Assembly (NCBI GenBank): GCA_963809825.1
Contig: CAWELJ010000014.1
Location: forward strand, 49,639 to 113,638
DNA from: an uncultured Acidimicrobiaceae bacterium
GTDB taxonomy: Bacteria > Actinomycetota > Acidimicrobiia > Acidimicrobiales > RAAP-2
Direction of reading: 5' to 3'
Length of the DNA stretch: 64,000 nt
Position 1 is the first letter of the stretch. Every line of letters starts with the position of its first letter. A program made the position numbers and the translations under genes. The notes beneath the pieces were generated by a model. The model ran no database searches. It was not told the origin of the DNA and worked only from the letters and a program-made list of their open reading frames with translations. This document shows positions 553-58,346 of the stretch, one piece after another.

Positions 553-3471
<2,919 letters not shown>

Positions 3472-3667: not shown

Positions 3668-3672
3668 GTAGA

Positions 3673-5960: not shown

Positions 5961-6044
5961 GACCGTCCTCCCTGCGCCCGATGGCGCCTCAGTTCCAGAG
6001 GGATGACGAAGTGGAGGGCCGGGGGTTACAGCGGGCTCGATCTG

Positions 6045-38988: not shown

Positions 38989-39217
38989 GTCCGGTCCTCC
39001 CGTCTCGTGCCCTGCCGACGGCCGACGCGACCGTCGTGGCACTGCCGAAGTCTGCGCGAACGGGCAGGGTATCGGAAGTGCCGAAGGACCTTTCTGCGAG
39101 TGCGCGGCGTGCTCATCCCGGCCCGGACCTTTGGCCCTAGCGGCTGTGGGCAACGGGAATGGAGACTGGGGCCGGGTCCTTCGACCCCGGAGATGACCGC
39201 ATCAGAGGAGGCTGCAC

Positions 39218-40815: not shown

Positions 40816-40938
40816 GGGACTCAGTGTCACAGAGGCCCACGGCGGCAAACAGGGACATTGGACCCTATCGGCCAGTGCTCTCATCAGGGACGATCGGTGC
40901 AGGTGGCGTGTACAAGCGCCGTCGTGGAGGTAGGGGTC

Positions 40939-45810: not shown

Positions 45811-47436
45811 TCAGATCTCCTCGGGCACCATCTCGATCGAGCCGCAGGGGCACTCCTGGACGCACAGGCCGCAACCCTTGCAGAAGTCGTAGTCGAAGCG
45901 GTACCCGTGCGCCTCGTCGACCTTCATCACCGCGTTGTCGGGGCACACGCCGAAGCAGTTGTCGCACTGGAAGCAGTTCCCGCACGACATGCAGCGGCGC
46001 GCCTCGAACAGCGCCGTGGACTCGTCGAGGCCTCCGACGACCTCGTCAAAGGTCGAAGTCCGGCGGGCGGCCTCGAGGCGGGGACGCACCGCGTGCGGCG
46101 CGTCGGCGTAGTACCACGTGTTGAGGTGCTCGGGCGTGGCCACCTCGTGGCGGGCCGGGCGCTCCCACTCGCGTCCGTCCAGCCAGGCGTCGATGGCCCG
46201 CGCCGCCCGCTTGCCGTGCCCGATGGCGTCGGTCAGCGTGCGCGCACCCGCCACGATGTCGCCGCCGGCGAACACGCCCGGGCGAGCCGTCATCAGGTCG
46301 GCCCCGACCGGAACCACCCCGCCGTCGACCGTGATCTCCGGTGTCCCGTCCAGCAGCGACAGGTCAGCCTCCTGCCCCAGCGCCAGCACGACCGAGTCCG
46401 CCCGCAGCTCTTCGAACTCGCCGGTCGGCTGCGGGAACCCGTCGTCGTCGAGCTCCATGCGCTCGATCGTCAGGACCTCGCCGGCCTGACCGACGATGGT
46501 CGACAGCCACTTGAGCCGCACCCCCTCCTCGACGGCGTCCTGGACCTCGTCGACATTGGCCGGCATGCGCTCCCGGGTGCGCCGGTACACGACCACCGCG
46601 TCGTCGGCGCCGAGCCGCCGTGCCGTGCGGGCGGCGTCCATGGCGGTGTCGCCACCGCCGTAGATCACGACCCGCCGGCCGAGCACCGGCGGCTCGTTGT
46701 CCTCCGTCTCGCGCAGCACGGACACCGCGTCGAGGATGCGGGCAGAGTCGCCGGCGGGGATGTCGGCGTGCTTCCCACGCTGCGCCCCCACGGCGAGGAA
46801 GGCGGCAGCGAAGCCACCGTCTTCCATTGCCTGCGCGAGATCCTCGACCGTGTGGTCGCAGACGATCTCGACGCCCATGGACGCGATCCGATCGATCTCG
46901 CTCTCGACGACGTCCCGGGGCAGGCGGTAGGAGGGGATGCCGTAGCGCATCATGCCGCCGGGCAGCGGCGACGACTCGAAGATGACGACCGCATGGCCCA
47001 GGAGACGCAGGTGGTAGGCGGCCGAGAGACCTCCCGGGCCGGAGCCGACGACGAGCACCCGCTTACCCGTGGGCGCCCCGGGCGGGTCGGGCGCCCAGCC
47101 GTCCTGCAGGGCGCGGTCGCCCAGGAAGCGCTCGATGGCGTTGATCCCGACCGTCTCGTCGACGGTGGCCCGGTTGCAGGCGGTCTGGCACGGGTGGAAG
47201 CAGGCCCGCCCCATGACGGCGGGCAGCGGGTTGTCGCGCATGATCTGGCGCCACGCCGCTTCGTAGGATCCGTCCTCGGCCAGGTACAGCCACTGCTGGA
47301 TGTTCTCGCCCGCGGGGCAAGCGTTGTTGCAGGGGGGGAGACGGTCGACGTACACGGGCCGCTCGACCCGCCACGACCCGGTCTTGTTGGCCAGGCTGGA
47401 GCCGACCTCGAGCGTGATGGCGAAAGGCCTCTCCAT
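45811..47436 (-). CDS. GltD-like NAD(P)H-dependent flavoprotein fused to a C-terminal 2x[4Fe-4S] ferredoxin domain (takes the place of the OFOR delta subunit)
   Basis: GltD N-terminal Fe-S region (PPCNNACPAGENIQQW, CFHPCQTACNR), dinucleotide folds (VLVVGSGPGGLSAA, VVIYGGGDTAMD), and a C-terminal CMSCGNCFQCDNCFGVCP ... CKGCGLCVQECP. The ATG overlaps the beta-subunit stop (ATGA). Confidence 0.85.
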   Translation of the reverse strand: MERPFAITLEVGSSLANKTGSWRVERPVYVDRLPPCNNACPAGENIQQWLYLAEDGSYEAAWRQIMRDNPLPAVMGRACFHPCQTACNRATVDETVGINAIERFLGDRALQDGWAPDPPGAPTGKRVLVVGSGPGGLSAAYHLRLLGHAVVIFESSPLPGGMMRYGIPSYRLPRDVVESEIDRIASMGVEIVCDHTVEDLAQAMEDGGFAAAFLAVGAQRGKHADIPAGDSARILDAVSVLRETEDNEPPVLGRRVVIYGGGDTAMDAARTARRLGADDAVVVYRRTRERMPANVDEVQDAVEEGVRLKWLSTIVGQAGEVLTIERMELDDDGFPQPTGEFEELRADSVVLALGQEADLSLLDGTPEITVDGGVVPVGADLMTARPGVFAGGDIVAGARTLTDAIGHGKRAARAIDAWLDGREWERPARHEVATPEHLNTWYYADAPHAVRPRLEAARRTSTFDEVVGGLDESTALFEARRCMSCGNCFQCDNCFGVCPDNAVMKVDEAHGYRFDYDFCKGCGLCVQECPCGSIEMVPEEI

Positions 47437-48443
47437 CAGGGAGCCACCGCCTCGGTCTCGAGCAGCCCGTAGAGGTCGATGTTGCGGTCCGCCATTGCCT
47501 GCAACGCGGCGATGATGTCCGGCCGCGCCGGGTCCCCCGCCGCGTCGAAGAGGTGCGCGTAGCGGCCCTGCAGGCGCAGGTACTCCTCCACCCGTGCCGG
47601 ACGTCGGATGGTCGAGGCCCGCACGACCTCCCCGTTCTCCGCCTCGAACACCGGGAAGAGCCCGGTCTGCGTCGCCAGGCGGGCGACCTTCACCGTGTCG
47701 CCCGGTGCGGAGCCCCAGCCCAGCGGGCAGGTGACCAGAATGTGGATGTAGCGAGCGCCGTGCAGTTCCATCGCCCGCGTGACCTTGTCCTCGAGGTCGT
47801 GGAGGTCCGCCACGGTTGCCGTCGCCACGTACGGGATCCGGTGGGCCATGGCCAGCTCGGGCATGTTCTTGCCCTGTCCGAAGGAGTTGCCCGGATGGGG
47901 GCCGACCGCCTCGGTCGTGGCCGTCCGCGCTGCCGGCGGGGTCGCTCCCGACCGCTGCACGCCGGTGTTCATGTACGCCTCGTTGTCGTAACAGATGAAG
48001 AGCACGTCGTCGTTGCGCTCGAACATGCCCGAGAGGCACCCGAAGCCGATGTCCACCGTGCCGCCGTCGCCGGCCTGGCTGATCACCCGGGTCTCGGCGC
48101 GGCCCTTGACCCGTAGCGCCGCCGCGACCCCGGTCGCCACCGCCGGCGCGTTGCCGAAGAGGGAGTGGAACCAGGCGATCTGCCACGAGGTCTCGGGGTA
48201 CGGCGTCGAGAACACCTCGAGGCAACCGGTCGCGTTCACCGCCACCATCTGTCCGCCCGTGGCGCGCATGGCGGCATCGAGTGCGTATCTGGCACCCAGC
48301 GCCTCGCCGCAACCCTGGCAGGCGCGGTGACCCGACGTCAGCGAGTTAGCGCGCCCGGCGTCCGACTGCACGGTGCGGTCGGAGCGGTTCACCAGCCGGT
48401 TGCCGACAGCGAAGCTGCCCACCTGATAGAAGTGCACGCTCAT
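47436..48443 (-). CDS. 2-oxoacid:ferredoxin oxidoreductase beta subunit (TPP-binding, Por/Vor/Kor family)
   Basis: Motifs CQGCGE, GDGGTVDIGFG and NEAYMNTGVQRS. Confidence 0.9.
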   Translation of the reverse strand: MSVHFYQVGSFAVGNRLVNRSDRTVQSDAGRANSLTSGHRACQGCGEALGARYALDAAMRATGGQMVAVNATGCLEVFSTPYPETSWQIAWFHSLFGNAPAVATGVAAALRVKGRAETRVISQAGDGGTVDIGFGCLSGMFERNDDVLFICYDNEAYMNTGVQRSGATPPAARTATTEAVGPHPGNSFGQGKNMPELAMAHRIPYVATATVADLHDLEDKVTRAMELHGARYIHILVTCPLGWGSAPGDTVKVARLATQTGLFPVFEAENGEVVRASTIRRPARVEEYLRLQGRYAHLFDAAGDPARPDIIAALQAMADRNIDLYGLLETEAVAP

Positions 48444-48445
48444 AT

Positions 48446-49699
48446 TCAGCCGATCCTCGAGGCAACGACGCCGAGGTCGCGCAGCATGTTCTCCGCCGTC
48501 GGCCCGGAGCGGCGCTGTGTCGCCATGCGCTCGAGTTCACGCTCAACCAGGGCCATGTTGAGGTCGAGAAACGTCAGCCGCTCCGACTCACCCCGGAGTG
48601 CCGCCTCGAAGACCCCTCGCAAGGACGCCTTGGTGATGGGACGGCCGCCCAGTCCGGCCACCACGGTGGAGACGGGAACGGGGAGGCCGCTCAGCGCCAT
48701 GGCGATGTCGGTCGAGAGCACGCCGCCGAAACCCACGCTGAAGGCCTTCTCGAGCACGACGACGTCACGCGCGCTCCCGAGCGCGCGGCGCACCGCGTCG
48801 ATCGGGAACGGCCGGAACGACGTGATGCCCAGCGCGCCAATGCGAAATCCGGCCTCGCGTTGCTCGTCCACGACGTCCTTGATCGTCCCGAGCACCGAGC
48901 CCATGGCGACCACGACCACGTCGGCGTCGGCGCTGCGGTACGGGTGCACGAGCCCGCCCGAGTCGCGCCCGAAGGCCTCAGCGAACTCGGCACCCAACTC
49001 GCCGAGGCGGCCGAGCGCGGTCAGCTGGCGGGCATGGGCCAGGTAGCGGACCTCCTCGAACGCATCGGGCCCGACCATGGCGCCGATCGAATAGGGATCG
49101 GCCGGGTCGAGGACCTGCCGCGGCTCGTAGGGAGGGAGGAAGGAGTCCACCAGTGCCTGGCTCGGCAGGTCGACCTGCTCGGTGGCGTGGGTGAGGATGA
49201 AACCGTCCATGTTCACCATGACCGGGACGGACACCTCCTCGGCGAGCCGGAAGGCCTGAATGTGCAGGTCGGCAGCCTCCTGGACCGTCTCGGCGAAGAG
49301 CTGGACCCATCCCGCGTCGCGCGCTGCCATGGCGTCGCTGTGGTCGTTCCAGATGTTGATCGGGGCGCCGACGGCGCGGTTGGCCAGCGTCATCACGATG
49401 GGCAACCCGAGCCCGGCGGCGTTGTAGACGGCCTCCATCATGAAGAGGAGCCCCTGGCTGGCCGTGGCCGTGAAGGAGCGGGCCCCTGCGACGGAGGCGC
49501 CGATCGCCACCGACATGGCCGCGAACTCAGACTCCACGTTGATGAACTCACAGGGCGAGAGCTCGCCCTTCTTCACCATTTCGCCCAGCGCCTCGATGAT
49601 GTGGGTCTGCGGGGAGATGGGGTAGGCGCACACGACCTCTGGCCGGCACAGGGCCACCGTCTGGGCCACGGCCCGCGAACCCTCAATCTGCCGGCGCAC
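48446..49699 (-). CDS. 2-oxoacid:ferredoxin oxidoreductase alpha subunit
   Basis: Motifs AYPISPQTHIIE and ESEFAAMSVAIGAS, 417 aa. Confidence 0.9.
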   Translation of the reverse strand: MRRQIEGSRAVAQTVALCRPEVVCAYPISPQTHIIEALGEMVKKGELSPCEFINVESEFAAMSVAIGASVAGARSFTATASQGLLFMMEAVYNAAGLGLPIVMTLANRAVGAPINIWNDHSDAMAARDAGWVQLFAETVQEAADLHIQAFRLAEEVSVPVMVNMDGFILTHATEQVDLPSQALVDSFLPPYEPRQVLDPADPYSIGAMVGPDAFEEVRYLAHARQLTALGRLGELGAEFAEAFGRDSGGLVHPYRSADADVVVVAMGSVLGTIKDVVDEQREAGFRIGALGITSFRPFPIDAVRRALGSARDVVVLEKAFSVGFGGVLSTDIAMALSGLPVPVSTVVAGLGGRPITKASLRGVFEAALRGESERLTFLDLNMALVERELERMATQRRSGPTAENMLRDLGVVASRIG

Positions 49700-50291
49700 C
49701 GAGCATCGTCCTTCCGTCGGCGCTCATGACCCCGCGCGCCTGCTGGAACACCTCGGCCACCGCCGCCACGTTGCGCTCGGCCACCGAAGGGTTGGCACTG
49801 AAGCGCTCGCGGATCGCCGAGGAGATCGCGCCCACGGTGACCTGGGCGGTCAGAGCGGCGAACCCTCCGAGCATCGCCGCGTTGGGGAGCGGCTTTCCGA
49901 TCTGCCGCAGCGCCACCTCGGTGGCAGGCACCGTGAGCAGGCGCTCGGGCCGGAACCGGGAGGCCAGCGAGCCCAGCCCGAGCTCGTCGAGGGCCCGGGA
50001 GGAGTTCACCAGGAGGTAGCCGTCGGGGCCGAGGCCAGCGAAGAGATCGACCTGGTGCACCAGGGTCGGGTCGATCACGATGACGCAGTCCGGTGCCACC
50101 ACCGGCTCCCGGGTCCGGATGGCTCGCTCGCCGAGCCGGCAGTAGGCGACAACGGGTGCACCCATCCGTTCGGAACCGAAGCTCGGGAAGGACTGCGCGT
50201 GCCGGCCCTCCTCGAAGGCAGCGAGCGCGAGGAGGTCCGCCGCCGTGACGGCGCCCTGCCCGCCCCTGCCGTGGAAGCGCACTTCGAACAC
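49683..50291 (-). CDS. 2-oxoacid:ferredoxin oxidoreductase gamma subunit
   Basis: Begins VFEVRFHGRGGQGAVTAADLLA (GTG 50291). It overlaps the alpha start by 17 nt. The ORF-track N-terminal extension was rejected. Confidence 0.85.
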   Translation of the reverse strand: MFEVRFHGRGGQGAVTAADLLALAAFEEGRHAQSFPSFGSERMGAPVVAYCRLGERAIRTREPVVAPDCVIVIDPTLVHQVDLFAGLGPDGYLLVNSSRALDELGLGSLASRFRPERLLTVPATEVALRQIGKPLPNAAMLGGFAALTAQVTVGAISSAIRERFSANPSVAERNVAAVAEVFQQARGVMSADGRTMLGAPAD

Positions 50292-50359
50292 CGTTCCAGC
50301 GTGCCTGCGGCCCCGGGGGTTCAGTAGAGCCAAAGGTCCCCGGTGCCCGGGACCCGGAC

Positions 50360-50373
50360 GTGACGAAAGTCCC
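50360..50373. promoter_or_regulatory. DosR/DevR-like half-palindrome GTGACGAAAGTCCC (hypothetical operator)
   Basis: Matches 12 of 14 positions of the core GGGACTWWAGTCCC of the mycobacterial DosR box. It lies in the 163-bp divergent region between the OFOR gamma gene and the 58-aa ORF/gap/hydrogenase string. Confidence 0.25.
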
Positions 50374-50454
50374 TGGTGCTCGGCGCAGGGACGGGCATGA
50401 ATTGCCTTGCCGTGCCCCGGGTCCAGCGCCCGGCCCATTCAGGAGGAGCGAACG

Positions 50455-50631
50455 ATGAAGATCGAACTGACCGATGCCCAGGCGGCGGACCTGCTCGAGC
50501 TCCTGCGGGGGGCGCTCGGCGACCTGAGCTCGGAGATCGCGGCGACGGACAACGCGTCGTACCGCGAGGGGCTGCGCAACCGGCGGGCTTCCCTGGAGAG
50601 CGTGCTGGAGCTGATGAGCGCACAGGGGTAG
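50455..50631 (+). CDS. 58-aa helical protein of unknown function, first gene of the gap-hydrogenase string
   Basis: Strong RBS AGGAGGAGCGAACG then ATG. The sequence is MKIELTDAQAADLLELLRGALGDLSSEIAATDNASYREGLRNRRASLESVLELMSAQG, with high GC3. Confidence 0.6.
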   Translation: MKIELTDAQAADLLELLRGALGDLSSEIAATDNASYREGLRNRRASLESVLELMSAQG

Positions 50632-50733
50632 CGGATTCGATCGGGGACCTTTGGCACTACTGCGCACGGGGTGCCGATGGGACCATCGAATCGGGAGGGC
50701 CCCACGGCCCCCGAGGTGATGGAGATGTCGACG

Positions 50734-51747
50734 ATGGCCGTACGAGTCGCAATCAACGGGTTTGGACGGACGGGACGTGCCTTCCTCCGCGCCGCCCTGA
50801 AGTCACCCCACGACGTCGAGGTGGCCGCCGTCAACGACCTCGGCGATCCCGAGGCGCTCGCCCGACTGCTGGCCCGCGACTCGGTCCACGGGCACTTCCC
50901 GGTGCCGGTGTCCGTCGAGCACGACACGATGATGGTCGGCTCCTCCCCCGTGACGATGTTGATGGAGCCCCACCCGGCCGAGCTGCCCTGGCGCGAGCTG
51001 GGCATCGACGTGGTGATCGAGAGCACGGGCCGCCTCACCAGCCGGGAGAAGGCGGCCGCTCACATTGAGGCGGGGGCGCGGCGGGTGGTCATCTCTGCGC
51101 CGGCCAAGGAAGCGGACGCCACGTTCGTCGTCGGCGTCAACGAGGACACCTTCGACCCGGGCCGCGACTTCGTCGTCTCCAACGCGTCGTGCACGACGAA
51201 CTGCCTGGCCGTCATGGCCAAGGTGCTCGACGATGCGTTCGGCCTGGAGCAGGGCTTCATGACCACGGTTCACGCGTACACCGACGACCAGCATCTGGTC
51301 GATGCCCTCCACAAGGACCCGCGGCGCTCCCGTGGGGCGGCGATCAACATCGTGCCGACCACCACCGGAGCGGCGCGGGCCACCGGACTCGTGCTCCCGG
51401 ACGTCGACGGGCACCTCGACGGGCTGTCGCTCCGGGTCCCGGTGCCGGACGGGTCGATCACGGACCTGGTGGCCCTGTTGGCGGCAACGCCCACGGTCGA
51501 GGAGATCTGCGGCGCCTACCGTGCCGCCGCCGAGATCGGGCGGCTCGCGGGTCTACTCGAGTACTCCGAGGACGACCTTGTGTCCACCGATATCGTGGGG
51601 TCCTCCGCCTCGTGCATCTTCGACTCGAAGCTGACCATGGCGCAGGGCAACCTGGTCAAGGTACTGGGGTGGTACGACAACGAGACCGGCTATTCGAGCC
51701 GGCTCGTCGACCTGGCCACCGTCGTGGGTGGCGCGGGGGAGCACTGA
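50734..51747 (+). CDS. gap: type I glyceraldehyde-3-phosphate dehydrogenase
   Basis: Motifs INGFGRTGR, active site SNASCTTNCLA and WYDNETGYS. An alternative in-frame ATG lies at 50719. Confidence 0.92.
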   Translation: MAVRVAINGFGRTGRAFLRAALKSPHDVEVAAVNDLGDPEALARLLARDSVHGHFPVPVSVEHDTMMVGSSPVTMLMEPHPAELPWRELGIDVVIESTGRLTSREKAAAHIEAGARRVVISAPAKEADATFVVGVNEDTFDPGRDFVVSNASCTTNCLAVMAKVLDDAFGLEQGFMTTVHAYTDDQHLVDALHKDPRRSRGAAINIVPTTTGAARATGLVLPDVDGHLDGLSLRVPVPDGSITDLVALLAATPTVEEICGAYRAAAEIGRLAGLLEYSEDDLVSTDIVGSSASCIFDSKLTMAQGNLVKVLGWYDNETGYSSRLVDLATVVGGAGEH

Positions 51748-51783
51748 TCGCCGAACCCGTCCCCGACGCCGCCCCACGGCGCG

Positions 51784-52962: not shown

Positions 52963-53429
52963 GCGAGGCGGCGCTGAACCTCCTCTCGGGCCACGCGTTC
53001 CTGGCCGGTTTCCCTCCCGAAGCCGTTGCGCTCGTGGCCGAGCACGCCGAGCCCGCCTCCTTCCGTCCGGGCGTGCTGCTCTTCCGGGAGGGGAGCCCCG
53101 CTGAGGTCACGTATTTCATCACCAAAGGCACTGTCTCCATCGAGATCCACGCGCCCAACCGCGGACCGATGGTCGTCGAGACGCTGCGGGCGGGGCAGGT
53201 GGTCGGGCTGTCGTGGGCCGCCCCTCCATTCCGCTACCAGTTCGACGCTCGCGCCGTCGACGAGGTGGACGTGGTCTGTGTCGACACCGCCCACTTGCGG
53301 GTGGCGCTGGCCGAGAACCCCCTGCTCGGGTTCCTCCTCCTCGACCGGCTGGCGGGGGTGATCCTCGAACGGCTCCAAGCGACCCGCATCAGGCTCCTCG
53401 ACATTTACGGCAGGAGCGATGCTCGCTGA
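52959..53429 (+). CDS. stand-alone cyclic-nucleotide-binding-fold protein (no DNA-binding domain)
   Basis: 156 aa with the cNMP beta-roll pattern (FLAGFPPEAVALVAEHAEPASFRPGVLLFREGSPAEVTYFITKGTVSIEI...LRAGQVVGLSW). The GTG start overlaps the hyhB stop (GTGA). Its own end overlaps the hyhG start by 11 nt. Confidence 0.85.
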   Translation: MSEAALNLLSGHAFLAGFPPEAVALVAEHAEPASFRPGVLLFREGSPAEVTYFITKGTVSIEIHAPNRGPMVVETLRAGQVVGLSWAAPPFRYQFDARAVDEVDVVCVDTAHLRVALAENPLLGFLLLDRLAGVILERLQATRIRLLDIYGRSDAR

Positions 53430-54279
53430 GGCCGCGGCAGAGCCCGCCGCCGTGGGGCCCTTGGTTCCCATGCCGTATGTGGTCGTGGGCCGGCGGGAGG
53501 AGGCCGCCGACGTGGTGACCCTCTCGATCGAACCCGCGCAGGGGGCGGTGCCGGCCTTCCGGCACGGCCAGTTCAACATGGTCACGTCCTTCGGCCGGGG
53601 CGAGGTGGCGATCTCAATGTCCAGTGCCCCCGGCGCTCCGGGACCGGTCGAGCACTCCATTCGCCGGGTGGGCGCGGTCACCGCAGCGCTCTGCGACGCC
53701 CCGGTGGGCTCGCTCGTCGGGATCCGTGGGCCGTTCGGGACCTCGTGGGGCATCGACGAAGTCGAGGACGGCGCCGACGTGGTGGTCATGGCGGGCGGCA
53801 TCGGGCTGGCGCCGTTGCGCGGTGCGATCCGGGATCTCGTGGTGCGCCAGAGGGCTGGCCGCGGCCGTGTCTTCGTGCTCGCCGGCGCCCGCTCGCCTGA
53901 CCAGATCCTCTTTCACGACGACCTGATCGCCTGGACTGAGGCGGGGGCCCACGTGGGGATCTCTGTCGACGTGGCCGCGCCGGGTTGGACGGGGCTGGTC
54001 GGCGTCGTCACGGCGCTGCTGCCGGGCGCGCCGTTCGAGGCGCCCGGGTCGCTGGCCCTGCTGTGCGGACCTGAGATCATGATGCGCTTCGGCGGCCGCG
54101 CCCTGGTGGACCGGGGCGTCGAGGCCGGGCGCGTCCGGGTCTCGCTGGAACGCAACATGCAGTGCGGCATCGGCCTGTGCGGCCACTGCCAGCTCGGGCC
54201 GCTGCTGGTGTGCCGCGACGGCCCGATCGTCGGCTACGGCGGGCTGGCCGAAGTGCTGTTCATGGAGCGAAACCGGTGA
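53419..54279 (+). CDS. hyhG: hydrogenase diaphorase-type FAD/NAD(P)-binding [2Fe-2S] subunit (AsrB/HyhG-like)
   Basis: Ferredoxin-reductase fold ([17 protein letters not shown]) and a C-terminal [12 protein letters not shown] cluster motif. Confidence 0.85.
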
Positions 54280-55088
54280 CGCCCGAAGAGATCCCCACGT
54301 TGGCCGTATGGAAGTTCGCCTCCTGTGACGGGTGCCAGCTGAGCCTGCTCGACTGCGAGGACGAGCTGCTGGCCCTCGCCGGTGCGGTGAGGATCGCACA
54401 TTTCACCGAGATGACCCGTGCGCATGTCGATGGCCCGTACGACGTCTCCCTGGTCGAGGGTTCGATCACGACGGCGGAGGACGTCGAGCGGATCCGAGCG
54501 GTGCGTGCCGCATCCCACCGCCTGATCACCATCGGTGCCTGTGCCACCTCGGGCGGCGTCCAGGCGTTGCGGAACGCCACCGCGGAGGGCGAGTTCGTCC
54601 GGGCGGTCTATGCCCACCCCGAGTACGTGTCGTCACTCGCGACCTCGACTCCGATCTCCGCCCACGTGCCGGTCGACTTCGAGCTCAACGGGTGTCCGAT
54701 CGATCGTCATCAGCTGCTCGAGGTCATCACGTCCTCACTCGTCGGGCGGCGCCCGGTCATCCCGGATCACACGGTGTGCCAGCAGTGCAAGGGCCGGGGC
54801 ACGGTCTGTGTCCTCGTTGCCCACGGGACGCCGTGCCTCGGACCGGTGACCCGGGCGGGCTGCGGTGCGCTGTGCCCGTCGGTCGGCCGCGGCTGCTACG
54901 GCTGCTTCGGACCCGTCGGCGGCGCGAACACGGATGCGCTGTCGAAGCATCTGCTCGAACAGGGCATGACGCCCCTGGACGGGTCGCGCCTCTTCTCCAC
55001 CTTTTATGCGGGCAACGAGGTGTTCGGCCGCCAGTCGGTCACGCTCCGGGCACGCGCCGGAACGGCTCGGACGGAGGCAGCGCCATGA
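54276..55088 (+). CDS. hyhS: [NiFe]-hydrogenase small (delta) subunit, group 3b type
   Basis: Motifs ASCDGCQLS and GACATSGG, with C-terminal Cys clusters ([34 protein letters not shown]). The GTG overlaps the previous stop. Confidence 0.9.
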
Positions 55089-56389
55089 CGCCTCCCGACG
55101 AGCGCCGGCGCACGGTCTCGGTCGAGGGATTGGCGCGTGTCGAGGGCGAGGGCTCGCTGCGCGTCGAGGTGCGAGACGGGCGTGTGGAGGACGTGGAGCT
55201 GCAGATCTTCGAGCCCCCCCGGTTCTTCGAGGCCTTTCTCCGAGGTCGTCGTGCGACCGAGGCGCCCGATCTCACCGCCCGCATCTGCGGCATCTGCCCG
55301 GTGGCGTACCAGATGAGCGCCTGCGCCGCGGTGGAAGACGCCCTGGGGGTCGATGTCGGGCGTGGTATCGCCGACCTGCGTCGCCTCCTCTACTGCGGCG
55401 AGTGGATGCAGAGTCACTCGCTGCACGTGCACATGCTGCACGCCCCCGACTTCCTGGGCTGTCAGGACGCCGTGGAGATGGCGCAGCTGCACCGGACGGC
55501 CTTCGAGCGGGGCCTGGCGCTGAAGAAGATGGGCAACCGCATCATGGAGACGGTCGGCGGGCGGGCCATCCACCCCGTCAATGTGAAAGTGGGGGGGTTC
55601 TACCGCGCTCCGAGCAGACCCGAGGTGGCCGCCCTGGCGGGCCCGCTCACCGACGCCCTCGACAATGCGCTGGCCACCGTGGAATGGGTTGCGGGGTTCG
55701 ACTTCCCCGACGTGGAGGGCGACTACCGCTTCGTGGCGCTGCGTGAGCCCGGTCGCTACCCGCTCGAGTCGGGCCGAGTCGCCTCGTCCGACGGTTTGGA
55801 CACGACCGCGGCCGGGTTCGCAGATCTGGTCGTCGAGGAACACGTGGCCCGTTCGACCGCTCTGCACGCCCGGCTCGAGAACCGGCTCGAGTACCTGACC
55901 GGACCGTTGGCCCGCTACGCCCTCAATTCGGCCGAACTGCCCGCCGTGGCCGCCGAGGCGGCGGCGCGGGCGGGTCTGGGTCCCCGCTGCACCAATCCCT
56001 TCCAGAGCATCGTCGTGCGCGCCGTCGAAATCGTCTTTGCCTGCTGCGAGGCGCTCAGTCTCGTCGAGCGCTACGAGCCGCCCGATCCACCCCACGCGCC
56101 GGTACCCGAAGGTGGTGGCGTCGGCACCGGTGCCACGGAGGCGCCGCGAGGCCTTCTTTTCCATCGTTACCACATCGATCAGGAGGGTTCGATCACCGAG
56201 GCGCGGATCGTGCCCCCGACGTCGCAGAACCAGATCACGATCGAGTCGGACATCAGACGGACGGTCCAGGCTTCGCTCGAGCTCACCGATGACGAGCTGA
56301 CCTGGAGGAGCGAGCAGGCGGTGCGCAACCACGACCCCTGCATCTCGTGCGCGACGCACTTCCTCGACGTGACCGTCGTCCGCTCGTGA
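55085..56389 (+). CDS. hyhL: [NiFe]-hydrogenase large (alpha) subunit, group 3b type
   Basis: N-terminal Ni-binding RICGICPVAY and C-terminal DPCISCATH followed by a 9-aa extension. The size (434 aa) and the BGSL gene order fit group 3b. Confidence 0.92.
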   Translation: MTPPDERRRTVSVEGLARVEGEGSLRVEVRDGRVEDVELQIFEPPRFFEAFLRGRRATEAPDLTARICGICPVAYQMSACAAVEDALGVDVGRGIADLRRLLYCGEWMQSHSLHVHMLHAPDFLGCQDAVEMAQLHRTAFERGLALKKMGNRIMETVGGRAIHPVNVKVGGFYRAPSRPEVAALAGPLTDALDNALATVEWVAGFDFPDVEGDYRFVALREPGRYPLESGRVASSDGLDTTAAGFADLVVEEHVARSTALHARLENRLEYLTGPLARYALNSAELPAVAAEAAARAGLGPRCTNPFQSIVVRAVEIVFACCEALSLVERYEPPDPPHAPVPEGGGVGTGATEAPRGLLFHRYHIDQEGSITEARIVPPTSQNQITIESDIRRTVQASLELTDDELTWRSEQAVRNHDPCISCATHFLDVTVVRS

Positions 56390-56413
56390 GCGTCGCCGGC
56401 TGGCCGGCGCGTC

Positions 56414-56953
56414 GTGCTGGCGGCGGTCGGCTCCGAGTTCCGCGGGGACGACGGTGCAGGCCCCGCGGTGCTCGATCAGGTGGGTGAGCTCGACGGCGTG
56501 GACATGCTCGGCGCGTTGGCCTCACCACTGGACCTCCTCGGGACATGGGACGGCGCGGACCTCGCCATCGTCGTCGACGCCGTCGACGGCATGGACCCGC
56601 CCGGGGGGGTGTGCGTCATTGAGGTGGACTTGGCGTCCGCACCAGACGTGTCCGGCCGGACGCGGTCGACCGCCAGCAGCCACGGTCTCGGTGTGATCGA
56701 TGCGCTCCGTATCGCCCGCGCCATGGGCACGGCGCCAGAGCGGGTGCTCCTGGTCGGCGTCTCGGGCGGGGACTTCGACCGGAGCGCCGGACTCGGCCCG
56801 GCGGCGTCACGTGCCGTGGAGCAGGCCGCCCGACGGGTCGTCGAGCTCGCCGGTGCAGCGACCGCCCTCGGGGAGGACCGGTCCCCACCTGGAGCCGCGG
56901 ACCGCCTCGGCCCAAGGCGGGGCGGGTCGTTCCAAGGGGACCATCGGCACTAG
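56414..56953 (+). CDS. hydrogenase maturation endopeptidase
   Basis: Motifs VLAAVGSEFRGDDGAG, IVVDAV and HGLGV, typical of the HycI/HoxW-type protease family. Confidence 0.8.
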   Translation: MLAAVGSEFRGDDGAGPAVLDQVGELDGVDMLGALASPLDLLGTWDGADLAIVVDAVDGMDPPGGVCVIEVDLASAPDVSGRTRSTASSHGLGVIDALRIARAMGTAPERVLLVGVSGGDFDRSAGLGPAASRAVEQAARRVVELAGAATALGEDRSPPGAADRLGPRRGGSFQGDHRH

Positions 56954-57002
56954 CCCGCGGCGGCGGGCAGGGAGACACTGCAAGGGCACCGAGGAGGTTG
57001 TC

Positions 57003-58346
57003 ATGAGCTTCCGCGATCGGGTGGATGCCGGTCGTCACCTGGCCGAGGTGGTGCGGGCCGCCGCCGGCATCGGCGAGACGGGCGCCGTCGTCTTGGGACT
57101 GCCGCGCGGCGGCGTCCCGGTGGCCTTCGAAGTCGCACGGGCGCTTTCGGCGCCCCTCGACGTCATTGTGGTGCGGAAACTGGGGGTGCCGTTCCAGCCC
57201 GAGTTGGCCATGGGTGCCATCGGGGAGGGAGGAGTGCGCGTCGAGAACGAAGAGGTCCTGCACACCTGTGGCCTCGACGCCTCCGACGTGGACATGGTCG
57301 AGCGTCGCGAGCGCCCCGAGCTCGAGCGTCGTGCCCGCGAGTACCGCAGCGGCCACCCACGGGTGGATCTCCACGGACGGTGTGCGGTCATCGTCGACGA
57401 CGGCATCGCCACGGGATCAACTGCTCGTGCCGCCTGCCAGGTCGCCCGCGCCCACGGGGCGGCCCGTGTCGTGCTCGCCGTCCCGGTCGCCTCGCGCTCT
57501 GCGGTGATGGGACTGCGCGACGTGTGCGACCAGATGCTCTGCGTCGAAGTTCCCGAGCCCTTCTATGCCGTGGGGGAGTGGTATCGCGACTTCTCGCAGA
57601 CAACGGACGATCAGGTCGTCGAGCTTCTCCGCCTTGCCGGTGCCGCCGATGGCGGCCGGACCGGGCGCGACCTCGGTGACGACGGTCTCCTCCGTGACGA
57701 GGACGTCGACATCCCCACCGGCGACGTGATGCTGACGGGCCGGCTGACCGTCCCCGCCGGCCTGATCGGAACGGTGGTCTTCGCGCACGGGAGCGGCAGC
57801 AGCCGCCACAGCCCGCGCAATCGCTATGTGGCCGGTGTCCTGAACGAGGCAGGCCTCGCCACGTTGCTGGTCGACCTTCTCACTGTGGACGAGGAGCTGG
57901 ATCGTTCCTGCGTGTTCGACGTCCGGTTGCTGGCCCACCGGCTCGACGACGCCAGCCAGTGGGCGAGGCTCCAGCCCGGGGTGGCGTCGGCGGGCGTCGG
58001 CTTCTTCGGCGCCAGCACCGGTGCCGCCGCGGCGCTGTGGGCCGCGGCCCAACCTGAGTGCCCTGTCTCGGCGATCGTGTCCCGTGGCGGACGGCCCGAC
58101 CTGGCGGCGCCTCTTCTCCCGGCGGTGAGGGCGCCCACACTGCTGATCGTGGGAGGCCACGACCAGGTGGTGCTGGATCTGAACCGCAACGCACAGGCAG
58201 AGCTGCAGTGTGAGAGCGTGCTCACCGTCGTACCGGAGGCCTCGCACCTCTTCGAGGAGCCCGGCGCGCTGGAGACGGTCGCCGGCCTGGCTCGCGACTG
58301 GTTCGTGGAGAAGATGGGAACGGGAGGGGGCTCTAGCGATAGGTGA
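57003..58346 (+). CDS. phosphoribosyltransferase domain fused to a dienelactone-hydrolase-like alpha/beta hydrolase
   Basis: GAGGAGG RBS. The PRTase part has VLGLPRGGVPVA and the PRPP loop VIVDDGIATGST. The C-terminal half has VVFAHGSGSSRHSPRN, GASTGAAAAL and GGHD. Confidence 0.85.
   Translation: MSFRDRVDAGRHLAEVVRAAAGIGETGAVVLGLPRGGVPVAFEVARALSAPLDVIVVRKLGVPFQPELAMGAIGEGGVRVENEEVLHTCGLDASDVDMVERRERPELERRAREYRSGHPRVDLHGRCAVIVDDGIATGSTARAACQVARAHGAARVVLAVPVASRSAVMGLRDVCDQMLCVEVPEPFYAVGEWYRDFSQTTDDQVVELLRLAGAADGGRTGRDLGDDGLLRDEDVDIPTGDVMLTGRLTVPAGLIGTVVFAHGSGSSRHSPRNRYVAGVLNEAGLATLLVDLLTVDEELDRSCVFDVRLLAHRLDDASQWARLQPGVASAGVGFFGASTGAAAALWAAAQPECPVSAIVSRGGRPDLAAPLLPAVRAPTLLIVGGHDQVVLDLNRNAQAELQCESVLTVVPEASHLFEEPGALETVAGLARDWFVEKMGTGGGSSDR

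Follow-up and report, generated by a model that had tools for sequence, protein, structure and literature searches.

The DosR/hypoxia-induced set of Mycobacterium smegmatis includes the H2-evolving hydrogenase Hyh together with PEP synthase, PfkB, a P-type ATPase and TAG synthases (PMC2799521; bioRxiv 10.1101/2023.09.11.557286). The PfkB protein MSMEG_3947 of this organism is DosR-regulated (bioRxiv 10.1101/2023.09.11.557286). For NfnB and DsrL-2 a YRR motif was published as determinant for NADP(H) (PMC7596348). DsrL-like proteins linked to 2-oxoacid oxidoreductases (OFORs) were already noticed in 2020, and a hydrogenase-linked cNMP protein is present in the literature as HoxI-like.

A stretch of 64,000 nt (the window) from an uncultured soil actinobacterium (Acidimicrobiales; contig CAWELJ010000014.1, assembly GCA_963809825.1) was investigated. 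The original prediction described an OFOR operon and a divergent hydrogenase operon on it as one electron-disposal unit. The locus is best read, judging from its genes and boxes, as an Acidimicrobiales version of the DosR/Hyh hypoxia island of M. smegmatis, plus a predicted NADP-reducing 2-oxoacid oxidoreductase. It widens a survival strategy already known from M. smegmatis and is not a new type of system.

Results

With Pfam and NCBIfam all genes of the original prediction were found in place or nearby, and the content and order of both operons were matched (Table 1). A GC3 of 0.84-0.94 backs every reading frame of the locus.

Table 1 Genes and DosR-like boxes of the locus, with positions in the window
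Feature	Position	Strand	Evidence and remarks
ROK-family sugar kinase (glucokinase-like)	36671..37621	-	Pfam ROK E 1.7e-41; NCBIfam ROK glucokinase subfamily, below cut-off
PfkB-family carbohydrate kinase	37635..38633	-	Pfam PfkB E 8e-36
DosR-like box CGGACCTTTGGCCC	39124..39137	+	13.8 bits; intergenic, between 92-aa/PfkB/ROK unit and divergent 118-aa ORF
Acetyl-CoA hydrolase/CoA-transferase family protein	39571..40815	-	start taken as ATG 40815; Pfam AcetylCoA_hyd_C E 1.9e-42
DosR-like box GGGACATTGGACCC	40852..40865	+	13.9 bits; divergent CoA-transferase/PEP synthase intergenic region
PEP synthase (pyruvate, water dikinase), 771 aa	40939..43254	+	start GTG 40939; NF005057 786 bits (cut-off 598); TIGR01418 760 bits (cut-off 740)
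GH43+DUF732 gene	44139..45698	-	between crotonase and OFOR operon
OFOR delta fusion (NfnB/GltD/DsrL-like iron-sulfur flavoprotein + PorD)	45811..47436	-	NCBIfam NF009410 734 bits (cut-off 516), full length
OFOR beta (PorB-like, TPP-binding)	47436..48443	-	Pfam TPP_enzyme_C; best NCBIfam PorB 319 bits, below cut-off of 405
OFOR alpha (PorA-like)	48446..49699	-	Pfam POR_N E 7e-71, PFOR_II; best NCBIfam archaeal PorA 446 bits, below cut-off of 550
OFOR gamma (PorC-like)	49683..50291	-	start GTG 50291; Pfam POR E 1.5e-38; TIGR02175 PorC_KorC 189 bits (cut-off 81)
DosR-like box 1 GGGACCTTTGGCTC	50327..50340	-	18.5 bits; ~37 nt upstream of OFOR gamma start
DosR-like box 2 GGGACTTTCGTCAC	50360..50373	-	19.7 bits, best match of whole window; 82 nt upstream of 58-aa ORF
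Conserved 58-aa protein	50455..50631	+	GC3 0.91; strong AGGAGG ribosome-binding site; pattern IELxDxQAxxL...EIAxTDNxxYRxxLRxRR
DosR-like box 3 GGGACCTTTGGCAC	50644..50657	+	19.2 bits; exact IUPAC pattern match; upstream of gap
Type I glyceraldehyde-3-phosphate dehydrogenase (gap)	50734..51747	+	TIGR01534 394 bits (cut-off 367); Pfam Gp_dh_N, Gp_dh_C
HyhB, AsrA-like Fe-S subunit	51784..52962 (alternative start 51826)	+	Pfam Fer4_22 E 3e-32; best NCBIfam sulfhydrogenase beta HydB, ShyB
cNMP-binding-fold protein, 156 aa, HoxI-like accessory subunit	52959..53429	+	Pfam cNMP_binding E 1e-11
HyhG, FAD/NAD(P)-binding + [2Fe-2S] subunit (AsrB/PyrK-like)	53419..54279	+	Pfam NAD_binding_1, DHODB_Fe-S_bind; best NCBIfam hydrogenase gamma, ShyC
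HyhS, [NiFe]-hydrogenase small subunit	54276..55088	+	Pfam Oxidored_q6; best NCBIfam sulfhydrogenase delta HydD, ShyD
HyhL, group 3b [NiFe]-hydrogenase large subunit	55085..56389	+	best NCBIfam ShyA, HydA; structures 9nez, 9e15, 5yxy
HycI-type hydrogenase maturation endopeptidase	56414..56953	+	Pfam HycI; TIGR00072 87 bits (cut-off 47)
Weak DosR-like box GGGACCATCGGCAC, candidate only	56937..56950	+	12.2 bits, two pattern mismatches; 53 nt upstream of PRT start
Phosphoribosyltransferase (PRT) + alpha/beta-hydrolase fusion, 447 aa	57003..58346	+	Pfam Pribosyltran E 3.6e-13, weak hydrolase matches

By sequence the OFOR was identified as a four-subunit enzyme of the pyruvate/2-ketoisovalerate type. 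The subunits reach no NCBIfam equivalog cut-off, so pyruvate or a related 2-oxoacid is its candidate substrate. The genes of gamma and alpha overlap by 17 nt, and alpha and beta are separated by 2 nt, as predicted. In contrast, the junction of beta and delta is TGATG with an overlap of 1 nt instead of the proposed ATGA. OFOR gamma is annotated with 202 aa in the related loci L081, L082 and L166.

The delta subunit consists of an N-terminal Fe-S domain, FAD domain, NAD(P) site with YRR, linker and a C-terminal PorD part with two [4Fe-4S] clusters. Pfam matches were Fer4_20, Pyr_redox_2 and Fer4_7, and PorD models cover residues 483-540. Among solved structures, the NfnB-like modules of 9bov, 9n5u, 8oh5_C and 4ylf_B come closest. 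The YRR motif (Y284, R285, R286) is invariant across 10 homologues, aligns with 'VYRRTEREMPA' of NfnB and indicates NADP(H). Since the FAD and NAD(P) motifs of the flavoprotein are also intact, the predicted wiring of the OFOR to pyridine nucleotide through this subunit is a reasonable reading. By its full-length match the fusion belongs to the curated yet uncharacterised family NF009410 with DsrL/NfnB architecture, and OFOR-linked relatives were known before.

The plus-strand genes run divergently and begin 163 nt from OFOR gamma, with gap as first long gene. According to its sequence the Hyh operon is complete, with B, the HoxI-like cNMP protein, G, S, L and protease, and gap at the head. 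The spacing and the four overlaps read as claimed: GTGA for hyhB/cNMP, 11 nt for cNMP/hyhG, GTGA for hyhG/hyhS and ATGA for hyhS/hyhL. Gaps of 24 nt and 49 nt follow between hyhL and protease and between protease and PRT. A VND motif that follows the Rossmann strand of the GAPDH may point to NAD as the preferred cofactor. For hyhB, an annotation with 378 aa is given in L081.

The best solved relatives of HyhL are the sulfhydrogenase I (SHI) alpha subunits of P. furiosus and T. kodakarensis (E 4e-62). The structures 9nez, 9e15 and 5yxy matched over the full length with E 4e-62 to 6e-61, whereas E 1e-36 to 1e-44 was obtained for groups 3c, 3a and 3d. HyhL contains the motifs RICGIC (C68, C71) and DPCISCATH (C419, C422) plus a C-terminal tail. 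Together with the AsrA/AsrB-like HyhB and HyhG, these results place HyhL in group 3b, as predicted.

The cNMP-fold protein of 156 aa has no DNA-binding domain, and a comparison of 66 orthologues showed a degenerate phosphate-binding cassette. In 74 of 80 related hydrogenase loci, which come from many phyla, its gene is flanked by hyhB and hyhG. Hence, it belongs regularly to this hydrogenase clade and is not, as assumed, special to the combination with the OFOR. The PRT-hydrolase fusion gave no NCBIfam match; it also adjoins the hydrogenase in L030, L046, L165 and L167.

PEP synthase, CoA-transferase and crotonase had been placed immediately upstream of the OFOR genes. They are located 3' of this operon, and the GH43+DUF732 gene, absent from the original prediction, intervenes. 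PEP synthase (Pfam PPDK_N, PEP-utilizers, PEP-utilizers_C) is the most constant OFOR neighbour and directly adjoins the operon in seven loci (L082, L084, L165, L166, L168, L121 and L149). For the CoA-transferase, NCBIfam matches were only distant, to butyryl-CoA:acetate and succinyl-CoA:acetate CoA-transferases. The ROK gene is the last of the 92-aa/PfkB/ROK unit, a position kept in L083, L165, L166 and L167.

A position weight matrix (PWM) for the box was built from loci outside the window only and then scored over the 64 kb. The box was defined here by comparison of loci; its consensus GGGACYTTTGGYMC is only similar to the DosR consensus of M. tuberculosis, TTSGGGACTWWAGTCCCSAA (PMC2275270), with agreement at 10-12 of 14 core positions. 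The three top matches of the window are the boxes flanking the 58-aa ORF. Intergenic DNA makes up 13% of the window, yet holds five of the eight matches (P = 0.0017). In general, the boxes are conserved islands within otherwise diverged orthologous intergenic regions. The core of box 1 is invariant in six such regions that are otherwise 48% identical. Box 2, in the same divergent OFOR/58-aa intergenic region, is kept in L083, L084, L165 and L166, and L083 and L165 also have box 3 in front of gap. Furthermore, 49 nt of the operator region on the OFOR side recur in inverted orientation as a stretch that includes box 3 (50294-50342 and 50642-50690, 73% complementary), and this inverted arrangement faces both operons. 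Equivalents of the box between CoA-transferase and PEP synthase occur in L082 and L083, and L083 has two high-scoring boxes just upstream of PfkB. A box upstream of hyhB was found in only 7 of 72 hydrogenase loci. The 58-aa protein matched no Pfam or NCBIfam family; homologues adjoin the OFOR in L083, L165, L166 and L168 and lie elsewhere in L005 and L082.

Discussion

The adjacency of OFOR and hydrogenase operons is far above chance. An OFOR operon was detected within 10 kb in 4 of 80 hydrogenase loci (random expectation ~0.4; rough Poisson P ~8e-4), and a hydrogenase operon in 4 of 80 OFOR loci (~0.14; rough P ~1e-5). The predicted conservation in relatives could be confirmed with L082, L165, L166, L167 and L169, and the two operons share an intergenic region with conserved operator-like boxes. 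The divergent OFOR/gap-hyh layout is kept in the first three, and in L167 and L169 hyhB is the immediate divergent neighbour of the OFOR; delta identity in these Acidimicrobiales relatives is 70-90%. The operons are linked but rearranged in L006, L012, L018 and L077, also in L090, L098 and L135. They recur jointly in at least five further arrangements, one with a group 3d hydrogenase. This NAD-reducing enzyme ends 37 nt before OFOR gamma in L152; this position beside a second NAD-linked hydrogenase class supports the original prediction.

A fixed unit, as originally proposed, is not in accordance with the remaining loci. No such OFOR was found within 10 kb in 76 of the 80 hydrogenase loci, and the majority of OFOR loci likewise have no hydrogenase over this distance. 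In L083, L084, L168 and L170 the OFOR island is present and the hydrogenase absent. Thus, both operons do not form an obligate unit or a single machine, but are frequent yet dispensable neighbours. We propose that they would be coupled by the soluble pyridine-nucleotide pool.

Under O2 limitation a NarL/DosR-type regulator would turn on all box-bearing units together. Four units, namely OFOR, gap-hydrogenase, CoA-transferase/PEP synthase and PfkB-ROK, are preceded by conserved DosR-like boxes and are predicted to stand behind this one low-oxygen switch. Glycolytic carbon would give pyruvate, with PEP synthase possibly in the ATP-conserving direction. The OFOR would oxidise pyruvate or a related 2-oxoacid to acetyl-CoA, CO2 and NADPH, the low-potential electrons passing through the clusters of the PorD part and of the N-terminal Fe-S domain to FAD and then NADP+. 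Hyh would re-oxidise NAD(P)H from OFOR and GAPDH and reduce protons to H2. Acetyl-CoA may be converted to acetate by the CoA-transferase/hydrolase or to storage lipid. H2 formation from NAD(P)H is endergonic at standard conditions and is feasible only if the pool is very reduced or H2 is low, which counts against this pathway; the strongly exergonic OFOR reaction could keep the NADP pool highly reduced. The NADP(H) signature YRR and PEP synthase are just as typical of metabolism that runs in biosynthetic, reductive directions, which argues against a fermentative role. We consider it about an even chance that the locus forms the centre of a DosR-type island for the response to low oxygen, with a by-pass that ferments sugar to acetyl-CoA, CO2 and H2.

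Fermentative H2 formation in an aerobe has already been published as the M. smegmatis Hyh/DosR model. Genes for Hyh, PEP synthase and PfkB are common to the M. smegmatis hypoxia set and the window. The 2-oxoacid oxidoreductase, predicted to reduce NADP, goes beyond the M. smegmatis island. No DosR-type regulator or sensor kinase is encoded in the 64-kb window. A larger hypoxia-type island, of which this locus is one part, is probably the better description. The loci of relatives add Usp, Pyridox_ox_2, nitroreductase, a GAF-HisKA_3 (DosS-like) kinase and GerE response regulators, and also WS_DGAT (TAG synthase), DUF1918 and a P-type ATPase.

Gene content and operon structure

The open reading frames (ORFs) of the original prediction were translated and scanned against Pfam and NCBIfam, and every gene named there was found. 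The features of the region, with the operon of a 2-oxoacid oxidoreductase (OFOR) and the genes of a [NiFe]-hydrogenase (Hyh), are listed in the table. At the junctions, the 17-nt overlap, the 2-nt gap and the overlaps GTGA, 11 nt, GTGA and ATGA stood as described; only the border of the OFOR beta and delta genes had to be corrected to TGATG, a 1-nt overlap. A longer ORF for the gamma subunit, starting at 50438, was discarded on the basis of homologue gene lengths and overlapping start/stop junctions. On the same grounds the long versions of the hyhS and hyhL ORFs were given up for the starts proposed originally. The PEP synthase is bona fide, with a score over two equivalog cut-offs.

Genes of the OFOR and hydrogenase region of the window and of its surroundings
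Feature	Position (nt)	Strand	Remarks
OFOR gamma	49683-50291	minus	Pfam/NCBIfam
OFOR alpha	48446-49699	minus	Pfam/NCBIfam
OFOR beta	47436-48443	minus	Pfam/NCBIfam
OFOR delta fusion	45811-47436	minus	Pfam/NCBIfam; 541-aa GltD/NfnB-like Fe-S flavoprotein with C-terminal PorD-type 2x[4Fe-4S]
58-aa ORF	50455-50631	plus	163 nt from gamma start
Type I GAPDH (gap)		plus	in the plus-strand string after the 58-aa ORF; exceeds TIGR01534 cut-off
hyhB		plus	first of six genes in the order listed
cNMP-fold protein	52959-53429	plus	156 aa
hyhG		plus	
hyhS		plus	
hyhL		plus	
HycI-type protease		plus	
Phosphoribosyltransferase (PRT)/alpha-beta-hydrolase fusion	57003-58346	plus	
GH43 glycoside hydrolase with C-terminal DUF732	44139-45698	minus	missed in the original prediction
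Crotonase	43354-44130	plus	
PEP synthase			past OFOR
CoA-transferase/acetyl-CoA-hydrolase-family gene			past OFOR
PfkB and ROK kinases			past OFOR
Sugar ABC transporter			past OFOR
Small ORF, about 92 aa	38710-38988	minus	no assigned function; between CoA-transferase and PfkB
Small ORF, about 118 aa	39218-39574	plus	no assigned function; between CoA-transferase and PfkB

In the window, the GH43-DUF732 gene and the crotonase gene separate the OFOR operon from the PEP synthase gene. They look like lineage-specific insertions, since the PEP synthase gene directly follows the delta gene in most of the related Acidimicrobiales contexts. Crotonase also occurs in the close relative L167. The positions of the two small ORFs of about 92 and 118 aa are kept in the relatives L165 and L166, with a DosR-like box between the two.

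For a near-identical locus (L081; ENA ERZ25039517 contig_22028) several gene calls were broken: OFOR alpha was split into 151 and 103 aa, the CoA-transferase was called with 202 aa and the ROK kinase with 95 aa, and the frame differed at the hyhL/protease junction. As the same genes are intact in the window, this points to indel errors in that assembly.

The G+C content of the window is 70%. A sigma-70 promoter scan of the window gave no match and a terminator scan five matches against 4.4 expected; both scans are uninformative for this high-GC genome. With Rfam at the gathering threshold, no RNA family was detected in the whole window.

The oxidoreductase and its flavoprotein delta fusion

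One operon encodes the OFOR set of alpha (POR_N and PFOR_II), TPP-binding beta, gamma (POR domain) and a 2x[4Fe-4S] delta domain. As far as contig ends permit, each of the 80 metagenome loci examined has the order gamma-alpha-beta-delta. Unlike a free ferredoxin-like delta of about 10 kDa that hands electrons to soluble ferredoxin, the delta domain of the window forms the C-terminus (residues 483-540) of a 541-aa flavoprotein, the gene of which is translationally coupled to the OFOR beta gene. Those of the 120 matches listed that are full-length homologues keep to 541-546 aa. It matched NCBIfam NF009410 (PRK12771, 'NAD(P)-binding protein'), a curated and uncharacterised family, with 734 bits at a cut-off of 516, residues 7-540 corresponding to profile positions 21-566. 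For residues 30-490 the best solved relatives, with E 1e-62 to 5e-91, are NfnB and NfnB-like modules of larger enzymes, among them Sporomusa StnC (4ylf_B, 5jca_L, 8oh5_C, 9n5u_A and 9bov_A).

The FAD motif GSGPGG, the NAD(P) motif GGGDTAMD and the segment VYRRTRERMPA align with NfnB. The triplet YRR is invariant in ten delta homologues; NfnB and DsrL-2 owe their preference for NADP(H) to it (PMC7596348). In the alignment with these solved relatives, the FAD and NADPH motifs and five of the Fe-S cysteines correspond. Of the partners of the NfnB/StnC type (NfnA, formate-dehydrogenase-like or HydBC-like proteins) none is present, and no sign of bifurcation was seen. An NfnA-like gene with PyrK-like FAD/[2Fe-2S] domains was found neither in the OFOR operon of the window nor in those of the 80 related loci. 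An AlphaFold2 model of the fusion from a 10-sequence alignment, with a mean pLDDT of 52 and termini below 50, was too poor for a fold search.

The delta fusion shares with DsrL the N-terminal Fe-S domain, the FAD domain with embedded NAD(P) domain, the linker, the C-terminal 2x[4Fe-4S] domain feeding a partner enzyme and the YRR mark of NADP(H) (PMC7596348). The partner of DsrL is DsrAB, whereas that of the window protein is OFOR, its C-terminal domain matching PorD models. An identification as DsrL was rejected: the domain order fits, but linkage to genes of the POR/VOR type without dsrAB is a published exclusion criterion (PMC7596348). No dsr genes were found among the window ORFs by the Pfam and NCBIfam scans. 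DsrL-like genes linked to genes of pyruvate/ketoisovalerate:ferredoxin oxidoreductases exist and were left out of the DsrL analysis (PMC7596348). This exclusion remark was the sole mention found in a literature search for a GltD/NfnB-fused OFOR delta, and no characterised one was retrieved; a Pelobacter genome paper and a review on the distribution of Nfn had no bearing on it. Hence, the delta fusion has been seen previously and not studied. The putatively NADP-linked OFOR is the truly uncharacterised element of the locus.

Pyruvate is the likely substrate by the ranking of NCBIfam models. The Por models ranked first, yet all scores fell short of the equivalog cut-offs (PorA 446 vs 550, PorB 319 vs 405, PorC 192 vs 225). 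The PadE, PadG and PadI models of PadEFGHI from Azoarcus/Aromatoleum, an OFOR-type enzyme called 'NADH-dependent' in NCBIfam, match gamma, alpha and beta of the window with 154-272 bits, far below their cut-offs of 300-700. An identity as Pad (phenylglyoxylate) was ruled out on these scores (PadG 272 vs 700, PadI 182 vs 700, PadE 154 vs 300). Phenylglyoxylate:NAD+ oxidoreductase owes its use of NAD to an extra FAD subunit, which is separate and of another type, not a delta fusion.

The hydrogenase and its cNMP-fold protein

HyhL contains the NiFe motifs RICGIC (C68, C71) and DPCISCATH, followed by a FLDVTVVRS tail of the cleavable type, and the NiFe cysteines are invariant in 12 homologues. 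Among solved structures, it matched the sulfhydrogenase I alpha subunits of P. furiosus and T. kodakarensis over the full length (E 4e-62 to 6e-61), well ahead of Mvh (7e-44), Frh (1e-38) and the NAD-reducing enzyme SH (4e-36). ShyA and HydA were on top of the NCBIfam ranking. By the order of these matches HyhL is assigned as the large subunit of a group 3b [NiFe]-hydrogenase, in line with the original prediction, and the AsrA/AsrB-like beta and gamma subunits round off an architecture of the group 3b type. The four-subunit set is complete, with an AsrA-like Fe-S beta, an AsrB/PyrK-like FAD-NAD(P) gamma, the small and the large subunit, and is accompanied by the endopeptidase. All four subunits are homologous to those of sulfhydrogenase I (9nez, 9e15, 5yxy), with conserved NiFe cysteines in the large subunit. 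The scores of the window proteins are far under the NCBIfam equivalog cut-offs; therefore Hyh belongs to a bacterial clade distant from the archaeal enzyme. The sulfhydrogenase models matched are those of alpha, beta, gamma and delta only, with none for the cNMP-fold protein of the window.

An alignment of HyhL homologues was scanned against one genome per species, which gave 80 loci with 10-kb flanks. They span Acidimicrobiia, other Actinomycetota, Acidobacteriota, Proteobacteria, Ignavibacteria, Zixibacteria, Brocadia, Dormibacteraeota and other phyla. The order B-(cNMP)-G-S-L-protease is kept in 72-80 of these 80 loci. With the window proteins in tblastn, the cNMP gene was detected between hyhB and hyhG in 74 of 80 loci from many phyla. 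It is therefore a standing component of the hydrogenase clade and not of this locus, and it appears to be a fifth component in nearly all bacterial enzymes of group 3b.

The cNMP-fold protein matched Pfam cNMP_binding with E 1e-11; it has no HTH domain and stands alone inside the hydrogenase operon. Its phosphate-binding cassette is degenerate: across 66 orthologues the canonical Glu and the Arg-Ser/Thr pair are missing, an aromatic residue following the Arg, and the canonical cNMP-contact residues are not conserved. Hence, a cyclic nucleotide is not the obvious ligand. Two recent papers touch on a cNMP-fold gene in group 3b clusters: one, on a methanotroph, calls it 'HoxI', and the other notes an ORF with cNMP domain for R. 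equi. By architecture the protein may be likened to HoxI of the soluble hydrogenase (group 3d) of Ralstonia eutropha, which is also a small protein with only a cNMP fold within an operon of an NAD(P)-linked hydrogenase.

Proteins of this kind, about 36% identical to the hydrogenase one, were also found in two loci without hydrogenase (L107, 3636-4052; L139, 6413-6859), where their genes adjoin gap and are divergent from the OFOR operon. For this reason the protein may be a regulator or sensor of the surrounding low-oxygen-type gene set (the island) and not strictly a structural hydrogenase subunit.

Conservation of the neighbourhood

The contexts of close relatives were collected by delta homologues with 70-90% identity. 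Some of these loci were picked since contigs of equal length bore both proteins, which biases the share with hydrogenase upward. The closest loci are all from Acidimicrobiales MAGs, and for this reason a mycobacterial origin of the window, to which DUF732 had pointed, was rejected. Three loci (L082, L165, L166) have the same layout as the window. For L167 and L169, hyhB is directly divergent from OFOR gamma, with 85-150 nt between and without gap. Four further loci (L083, L084, L168, L170) contain the OFOR without hydrogenase within 10 kb.

Within 10 kb of the 80 hydrogenases an OFOR was found in L006, L012, L018 and L077 (a Solirubrobacterales MAG) only, located downstream, convergent or 6 kb away. 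The OFOR-centred sample of 80 metagenome loci (identity 60-69%) includes three with an adjoining group 3b hydrogenase: L090 (tandem, upstream), L098 (co-directional hyhB 211 nt downstream) and L135. For L152 (563-10097) the operon of a group 3d hydrogenase ends 37 nt before OFOR gamma on the same strand, and this OFOR has the same flavoprotein-delta fusion. The large subunit of that hydrogenase (3624-5120) is followed by a protease (5120-5590); its best PDB match is the NAD+-reducing enzyme 5xf9_D (E 2e-188). Under rough assumptions, four of 80 loci in each direction are about 10- to 30-fold over random placement, and arrangements as varied as these speak for proximity having been selected repeatedly.

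Clustering of the ORFs of 83 loci revealed no universal partner past the four OFOR genes. Recurrent neighbours were GAPDH (6 loci), PEP synthase, malic enzyme, Zn-ADH and cNMP-like proteins (5 each), and CoA-transferase, GerE response regulators and Pyridox_ox_2 (4 each). The link of OFOR and hydrogenase is facultative. The description of both operons as one unit is thus an overstatement, although synteny in relatives and a shared predicted operator do exist.

Predicted DosR-like regulation

The orthologous regions upstream of OFOR from six genomes are 48% identical overall, yet two blocks are kept, CCAGGGACTTnnGTCAC and GGGGACCTTTGGCTCTA. The same box is also present upstream of gap. It agrees with the DosR consensus of M. 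tuberculosis, TTSGGGACTWWAGTCCCSAA (PMC2275270), in 10-12 of 14 core positions; this consensus is mycobacterial, whereas the host belongs to the Acidimicrobiia. The predicted boxes ahead of member operons resemble a DosR (DevR) operator of the GGGAC...GTCCC type. Searching the strict palindrome GGGACNNNNGTCCC with one mismatch allowed gave 7 matches vs 10 expected and no enrichment. The operator is asymmetric; a pattern or position weight matrix (PWM) from orthologous intergenic regions was required.

A PWM was made solely from the boxes in three relatives (L082-L084) and used with a match threshold of 13 bits. Its three best matches across the 64-kb window are at 50327, 50360 and 50644. Five of the eight matches with at least 13 bits are intergenic, while intergenic DNA accounts for 13% of the window (P = 0.0017). 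Further matches are placed between the CoA-transferase and PEP synthase genes (40852) and between the PfkB-ROK genes and the 118-aa ORF (39124). The PRT gene is preceded, at a distance of 53 nt, by a weak box. On both sides of the 58-aa ORF are the arms of a 49-nt inverted repeat (50294-50342 / 50642-50690; 73% complementary), so the same operator/promoter module faces both OFOR and gap-hyh. Upstream of hyhB, the box was found in only 7 of 72 hydrogenase loci, which is still a 13-fold enrichment.

In relatives, boxes are also located ahead of genes for Usp, DUF1918, Pyridox_ox_2 and PfkB. Encoded in their islands are Usp, nitroreductase, a GAF-HisKA_3 kinase, GerE response regulators, WS_DGAT and a P-type ATPase, families which we take to be typical of DosR regulons. 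Published members support this in part: Rv0569 and Rv0571c (PMC2275270), the ATPase and PEP synthase (PMC2799521), and PfkB, PEP synthase and TAG synthases (bioRxiv 10.1101/2023.09.11.557286). The Pfam and NCBIfam scans detected no DosR-type response regulator or sensor kinase in the window. L083 is flanked by genes for GerE response regulators, and four metagenome loci also encode such proteins.

Immediately upstream of the OFOR operon of L168, which has no hydrogenase, a GAF-HisKA_3-HATPase kinase with DosS/DosT-like architecture and a nitroreductase were found (4570-6449). Genes for CBS, Pyridox_ox_2, ADH, Usp and PGK surround them.

Discussion

Mycobacterium smegmatis has a single DosR cluster, induced by hypoxia, for Hyh (MSMEG_3927-3931), a P-type ATPase (MSMEG_3926), HspX and PEP synthase (MSMEG_3934) (PMC2799521). 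Its Hyh evolves H2 in hypoxia, and among metabolic enzymes the induction is strongest for PEP synthase (70-fold), PfkB and TAG synthases (bioRxiv 10.1101/2023.09.11.557286). The island MSMEG_3926-3955 is comparable to the window in that a group 3b hydrogenase with its protease lies a few genes from PEP synthase; the P-type ATPase is near, PfkB and TAG synthases belong to the same regulon, and H2 evolution disposes of reductant in an aerobe. The window has this gene set in common and DosR-like boxes are present, its regulation being predicted only. By this analogy, it is best read as the Acidimicrobiales counterpart, in another class, of the DosR/Hyh island for hypoxic H2 fermentation of M. smegmatis. 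The mycobacterial papers cited here report no OFOR with flavoprotein delta and no GAPDH at the locus, and the 2010 annotation of M. smegmatis, unlike the window, has no cNMP gene between the beta and gamma subunits. Additions over the M. smegmatis island are the predicted NADP-wired OFOR, the GAPDH heading the hydrogenase operon and the CoA-transferase.

The DNA offers domain and cofactor motifs, operon structures, conserved boxes and synteny statistics. The observations of the original prediction stood with small corrections, and its interpretation as a 2-oxoacid-to-H2 route was only partly supported. We tentatively favour, at about even odds, the following reading. Electrons from pyruvate would pass the PorD clusters, the N-terminal Fe-S domain and FAD to NADP+. 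By textbook midpoint potentials of about -500 mV for the pyruvate couple and about -320 mV for NADP, this step would be strongly exergonic, and it could hold NADP in so reduced a state that Hyh can reduce protons when H2 is low. GAPDH would contribute NAD(P)H, its VND motif suggesting NAD as cofactor. Acetate or lipid would be formed from acetyl-CoA. PEP synthase may work in the direction of pyruvate and gain ATP, as is reportedly the case in Thermococcus. A farther-reaching reading is possible rather than probable. In it, the gamma-alpha-beta OFOR with its DsrL/NfnB-like delta would be a genuine prokaryotic pyruvate:NADP+ oxidoreductase, a class not known to have a characterised member, which a DosR-type operator would switch on in aerobic Actinomycetota. 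Its strongly exergonic reaction would over-reduce the NADP pool, which would make H2 evolution by the group 3b enzyme (3d in some lineages) thermodynamically feasible, and would supply acetyl-CoA and NADPH for storage lipid.

As the main rival reading, the operons could be neighbours within one regulon only, without a dedicated route from 2-oxoacid to H2. The NADP-linked OFOR would then mainly supply acetyl-CoA and NADPH for TAG or wax esters, or replace pyruvate dehydrogenase at high NADH, while Hyh would act on its own as a general redox valve. Of the neighbours, PEP synthase stays constant and the hydrogenase varies, malic enzyme and Zn-ADH are among the recurrent neighbours, WS_DGAT adjoins gap/OFOR in L083, and in M. 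smegmatis Hyh-dependent fermentation is coupled with TAG storage under DosR (bioRxiv 10.1101/2023.09.11.557286). The independent juxtapositions with two classes of NAD(P)-linked hydrogenases in at least six arrangements are, however, hard to explain without a functional link, and in L167 and L169 a single control region of 85-150 nt is common to both operons. We therefore regard mere neighbourhood as rather doubtful. That the proximity itself arose by chance in one lineage and was fixed without functional or regulatory meaning would fit a plastic region with lineage-specific insertions (GH43, crotonase) and a combination missing from most loci of either kind. The recurrence across arrangements and hydrogenase classes, the enrichment over random placement and the conserved operator-like boxes common to both operons make this highly improbable.

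A reductive, gluconeogenic direction was considered as well. Hyh would take up H2, and NADPH would reduce OFOR via the flavoprotein-delta, so that it works as pyruvate synthase (acetyl-CoA + CO2 -> pyruvate), followed by PEP synthase and GAPDH towards sugars; the CoA-transferase would activate acetate. Group 3b enzymes work in both directions, the canonical role of PEP synthase is in gluconeogenesis, and from CoA-transferase, OFOR, PEP synthase and GAPDH an acetate-to-triose route can be drawn. Furthermore, YRR/NADPH accompanies the reductive direction in DsrL-2 (PMC7596348), and POR is highly expressed in an autotrophic Acidimicrobiia strain with a reversed oxidative TCA cycle (PMC11697166). 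Nevertheless, this direction is unlikely. By textbook potentials, NADPH at about -320 mV is too weak a reductant for pyruvate synthesis at about -500 mV unless bifurcation is involved, and with the NfnA-like high-potential partner absent from the OFOR operon an unseen bifurcation partner would be needed. Catabolism is indicated by the nearby ROK, PfkB and sugar uptake genes and, for L082, by phosphoketolase/acetate kinase, and the hypoxia-type context agrees with H2 evolution in M. smegmatis (bioRxiv 10.1101/2023.09.11.557286). A physical super-complex would be a split Nfn-like bifurcation system, in which the FAD of the NfnB-like delta docks on the NfnA/PyrK-like HyhG and OFOR electrons help to reduce protons directly. 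The NfnB-like body of delta, the PyrK/NfnA-like FAD-NAD and [2Fe-2S] fold of HyhG and the tight adjacency of the operons in some genomes speak for it. Since most of these OFOR operons occur without hydrogenase and most of the hydrogenases without OFOR, such a complex is very unlikely.

Under the farther-reaching pyruvate:NADP+ reading, the locus would be a bacterial functional analogue of two eukaryotic pathways. PNO of Euglena and Cryptosporidium converts pyruvate, CoA and NADP+ to acetyl-CoA, CO2 and NADPH under anoxia and feeds wax ester fermentation; in its single chain, PFOR is joined to an FMN/FAD domain of the cytochrome-P450-reductase type. In hydrogenosomes (PFOR-hydrogenase-ASCT), which use ferredoxin and an [FeFe]-hydrogenase, the oxidation of pyruvate goes together with H2 evolution and a CoA-transferase of the acetyl-CoA-hydrolase family. 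The proposed likeness to the window OFOR is in working only; homology of the NADP modules is not implied.

To our knowledge, fermentative H2 production by obligate aerobes via group 3b hydrogenases is established only in M. smegmatis. For this species, neither where the reductant comes from nor what the very strongly induced PEP synthase does has been settled, the latter being hard to square with the data according to the authors (bioRxiv 10.1101/2023.09.11.557286). The locus and its relatives offer a concrete candidate: an NADP-wired 2-oxoacid oxidoreductase behind a conserved DosR-like operator, mostly beside PEP synthase and repeatedly beside NAD(P)-linked hydrogenases. The pyruvate:NADP+ reading, if true, would also account for the puzzling hypoxic induction of PEP synthase. 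As soil and peat metagenomes are rich in Acidimicrobiales that carry these genes, the pathway could matter for the turnover of H2 and carbon in periodically anoxic soils. The OFOR fusion would be of biochemical and biotechnological interest as a putative irreversible pyruvate-to-NADPH converter. Within the collection of papers searched, none joins DosR, Acidimicrobiia and hydrogenases.

Further observations

The 58-aa ORF encodes a conserved small protein without family assignment (pattern IELxDxQAxxL...EIAxTDNxxYRxxLRxRR), found in the window and in L083, L165, L166, L168, L005 and L082. Its gene mostly adjoins the OFOR promoter region; the L082 copy is located elsewhere in the island.

The PRT/alpha-beta-hydrolase fusion also adjoins group 3b hydrogenases of other Actinomycetota (L030, L046, L165 and L167), including a Mycobacteriales MAG. 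Presumably it resembles Rv0571c of M. tuberculosis. Rv0571c and Rv0569 are members of the DosR regulon (PMC2275270).

At the start of the window, a class II (B12-dependent) ribonucleotide reductase with TSCPD domain is encoded on the plus strand (553-3471), with a weak box-like match (766-779) inside the reading frame. The class II enzyme (nrdZ) is a member of the DosR regulon of M. tuberculosis. Towards the other end, LigD is present as two overlapping minus-strand genes, one for a primase-polymerase domain protein (60552-61547) and one for a phosphoesterase and ATP-dependent ligase protein (61457-63247); the G+C content of this region is locally down to 66%.
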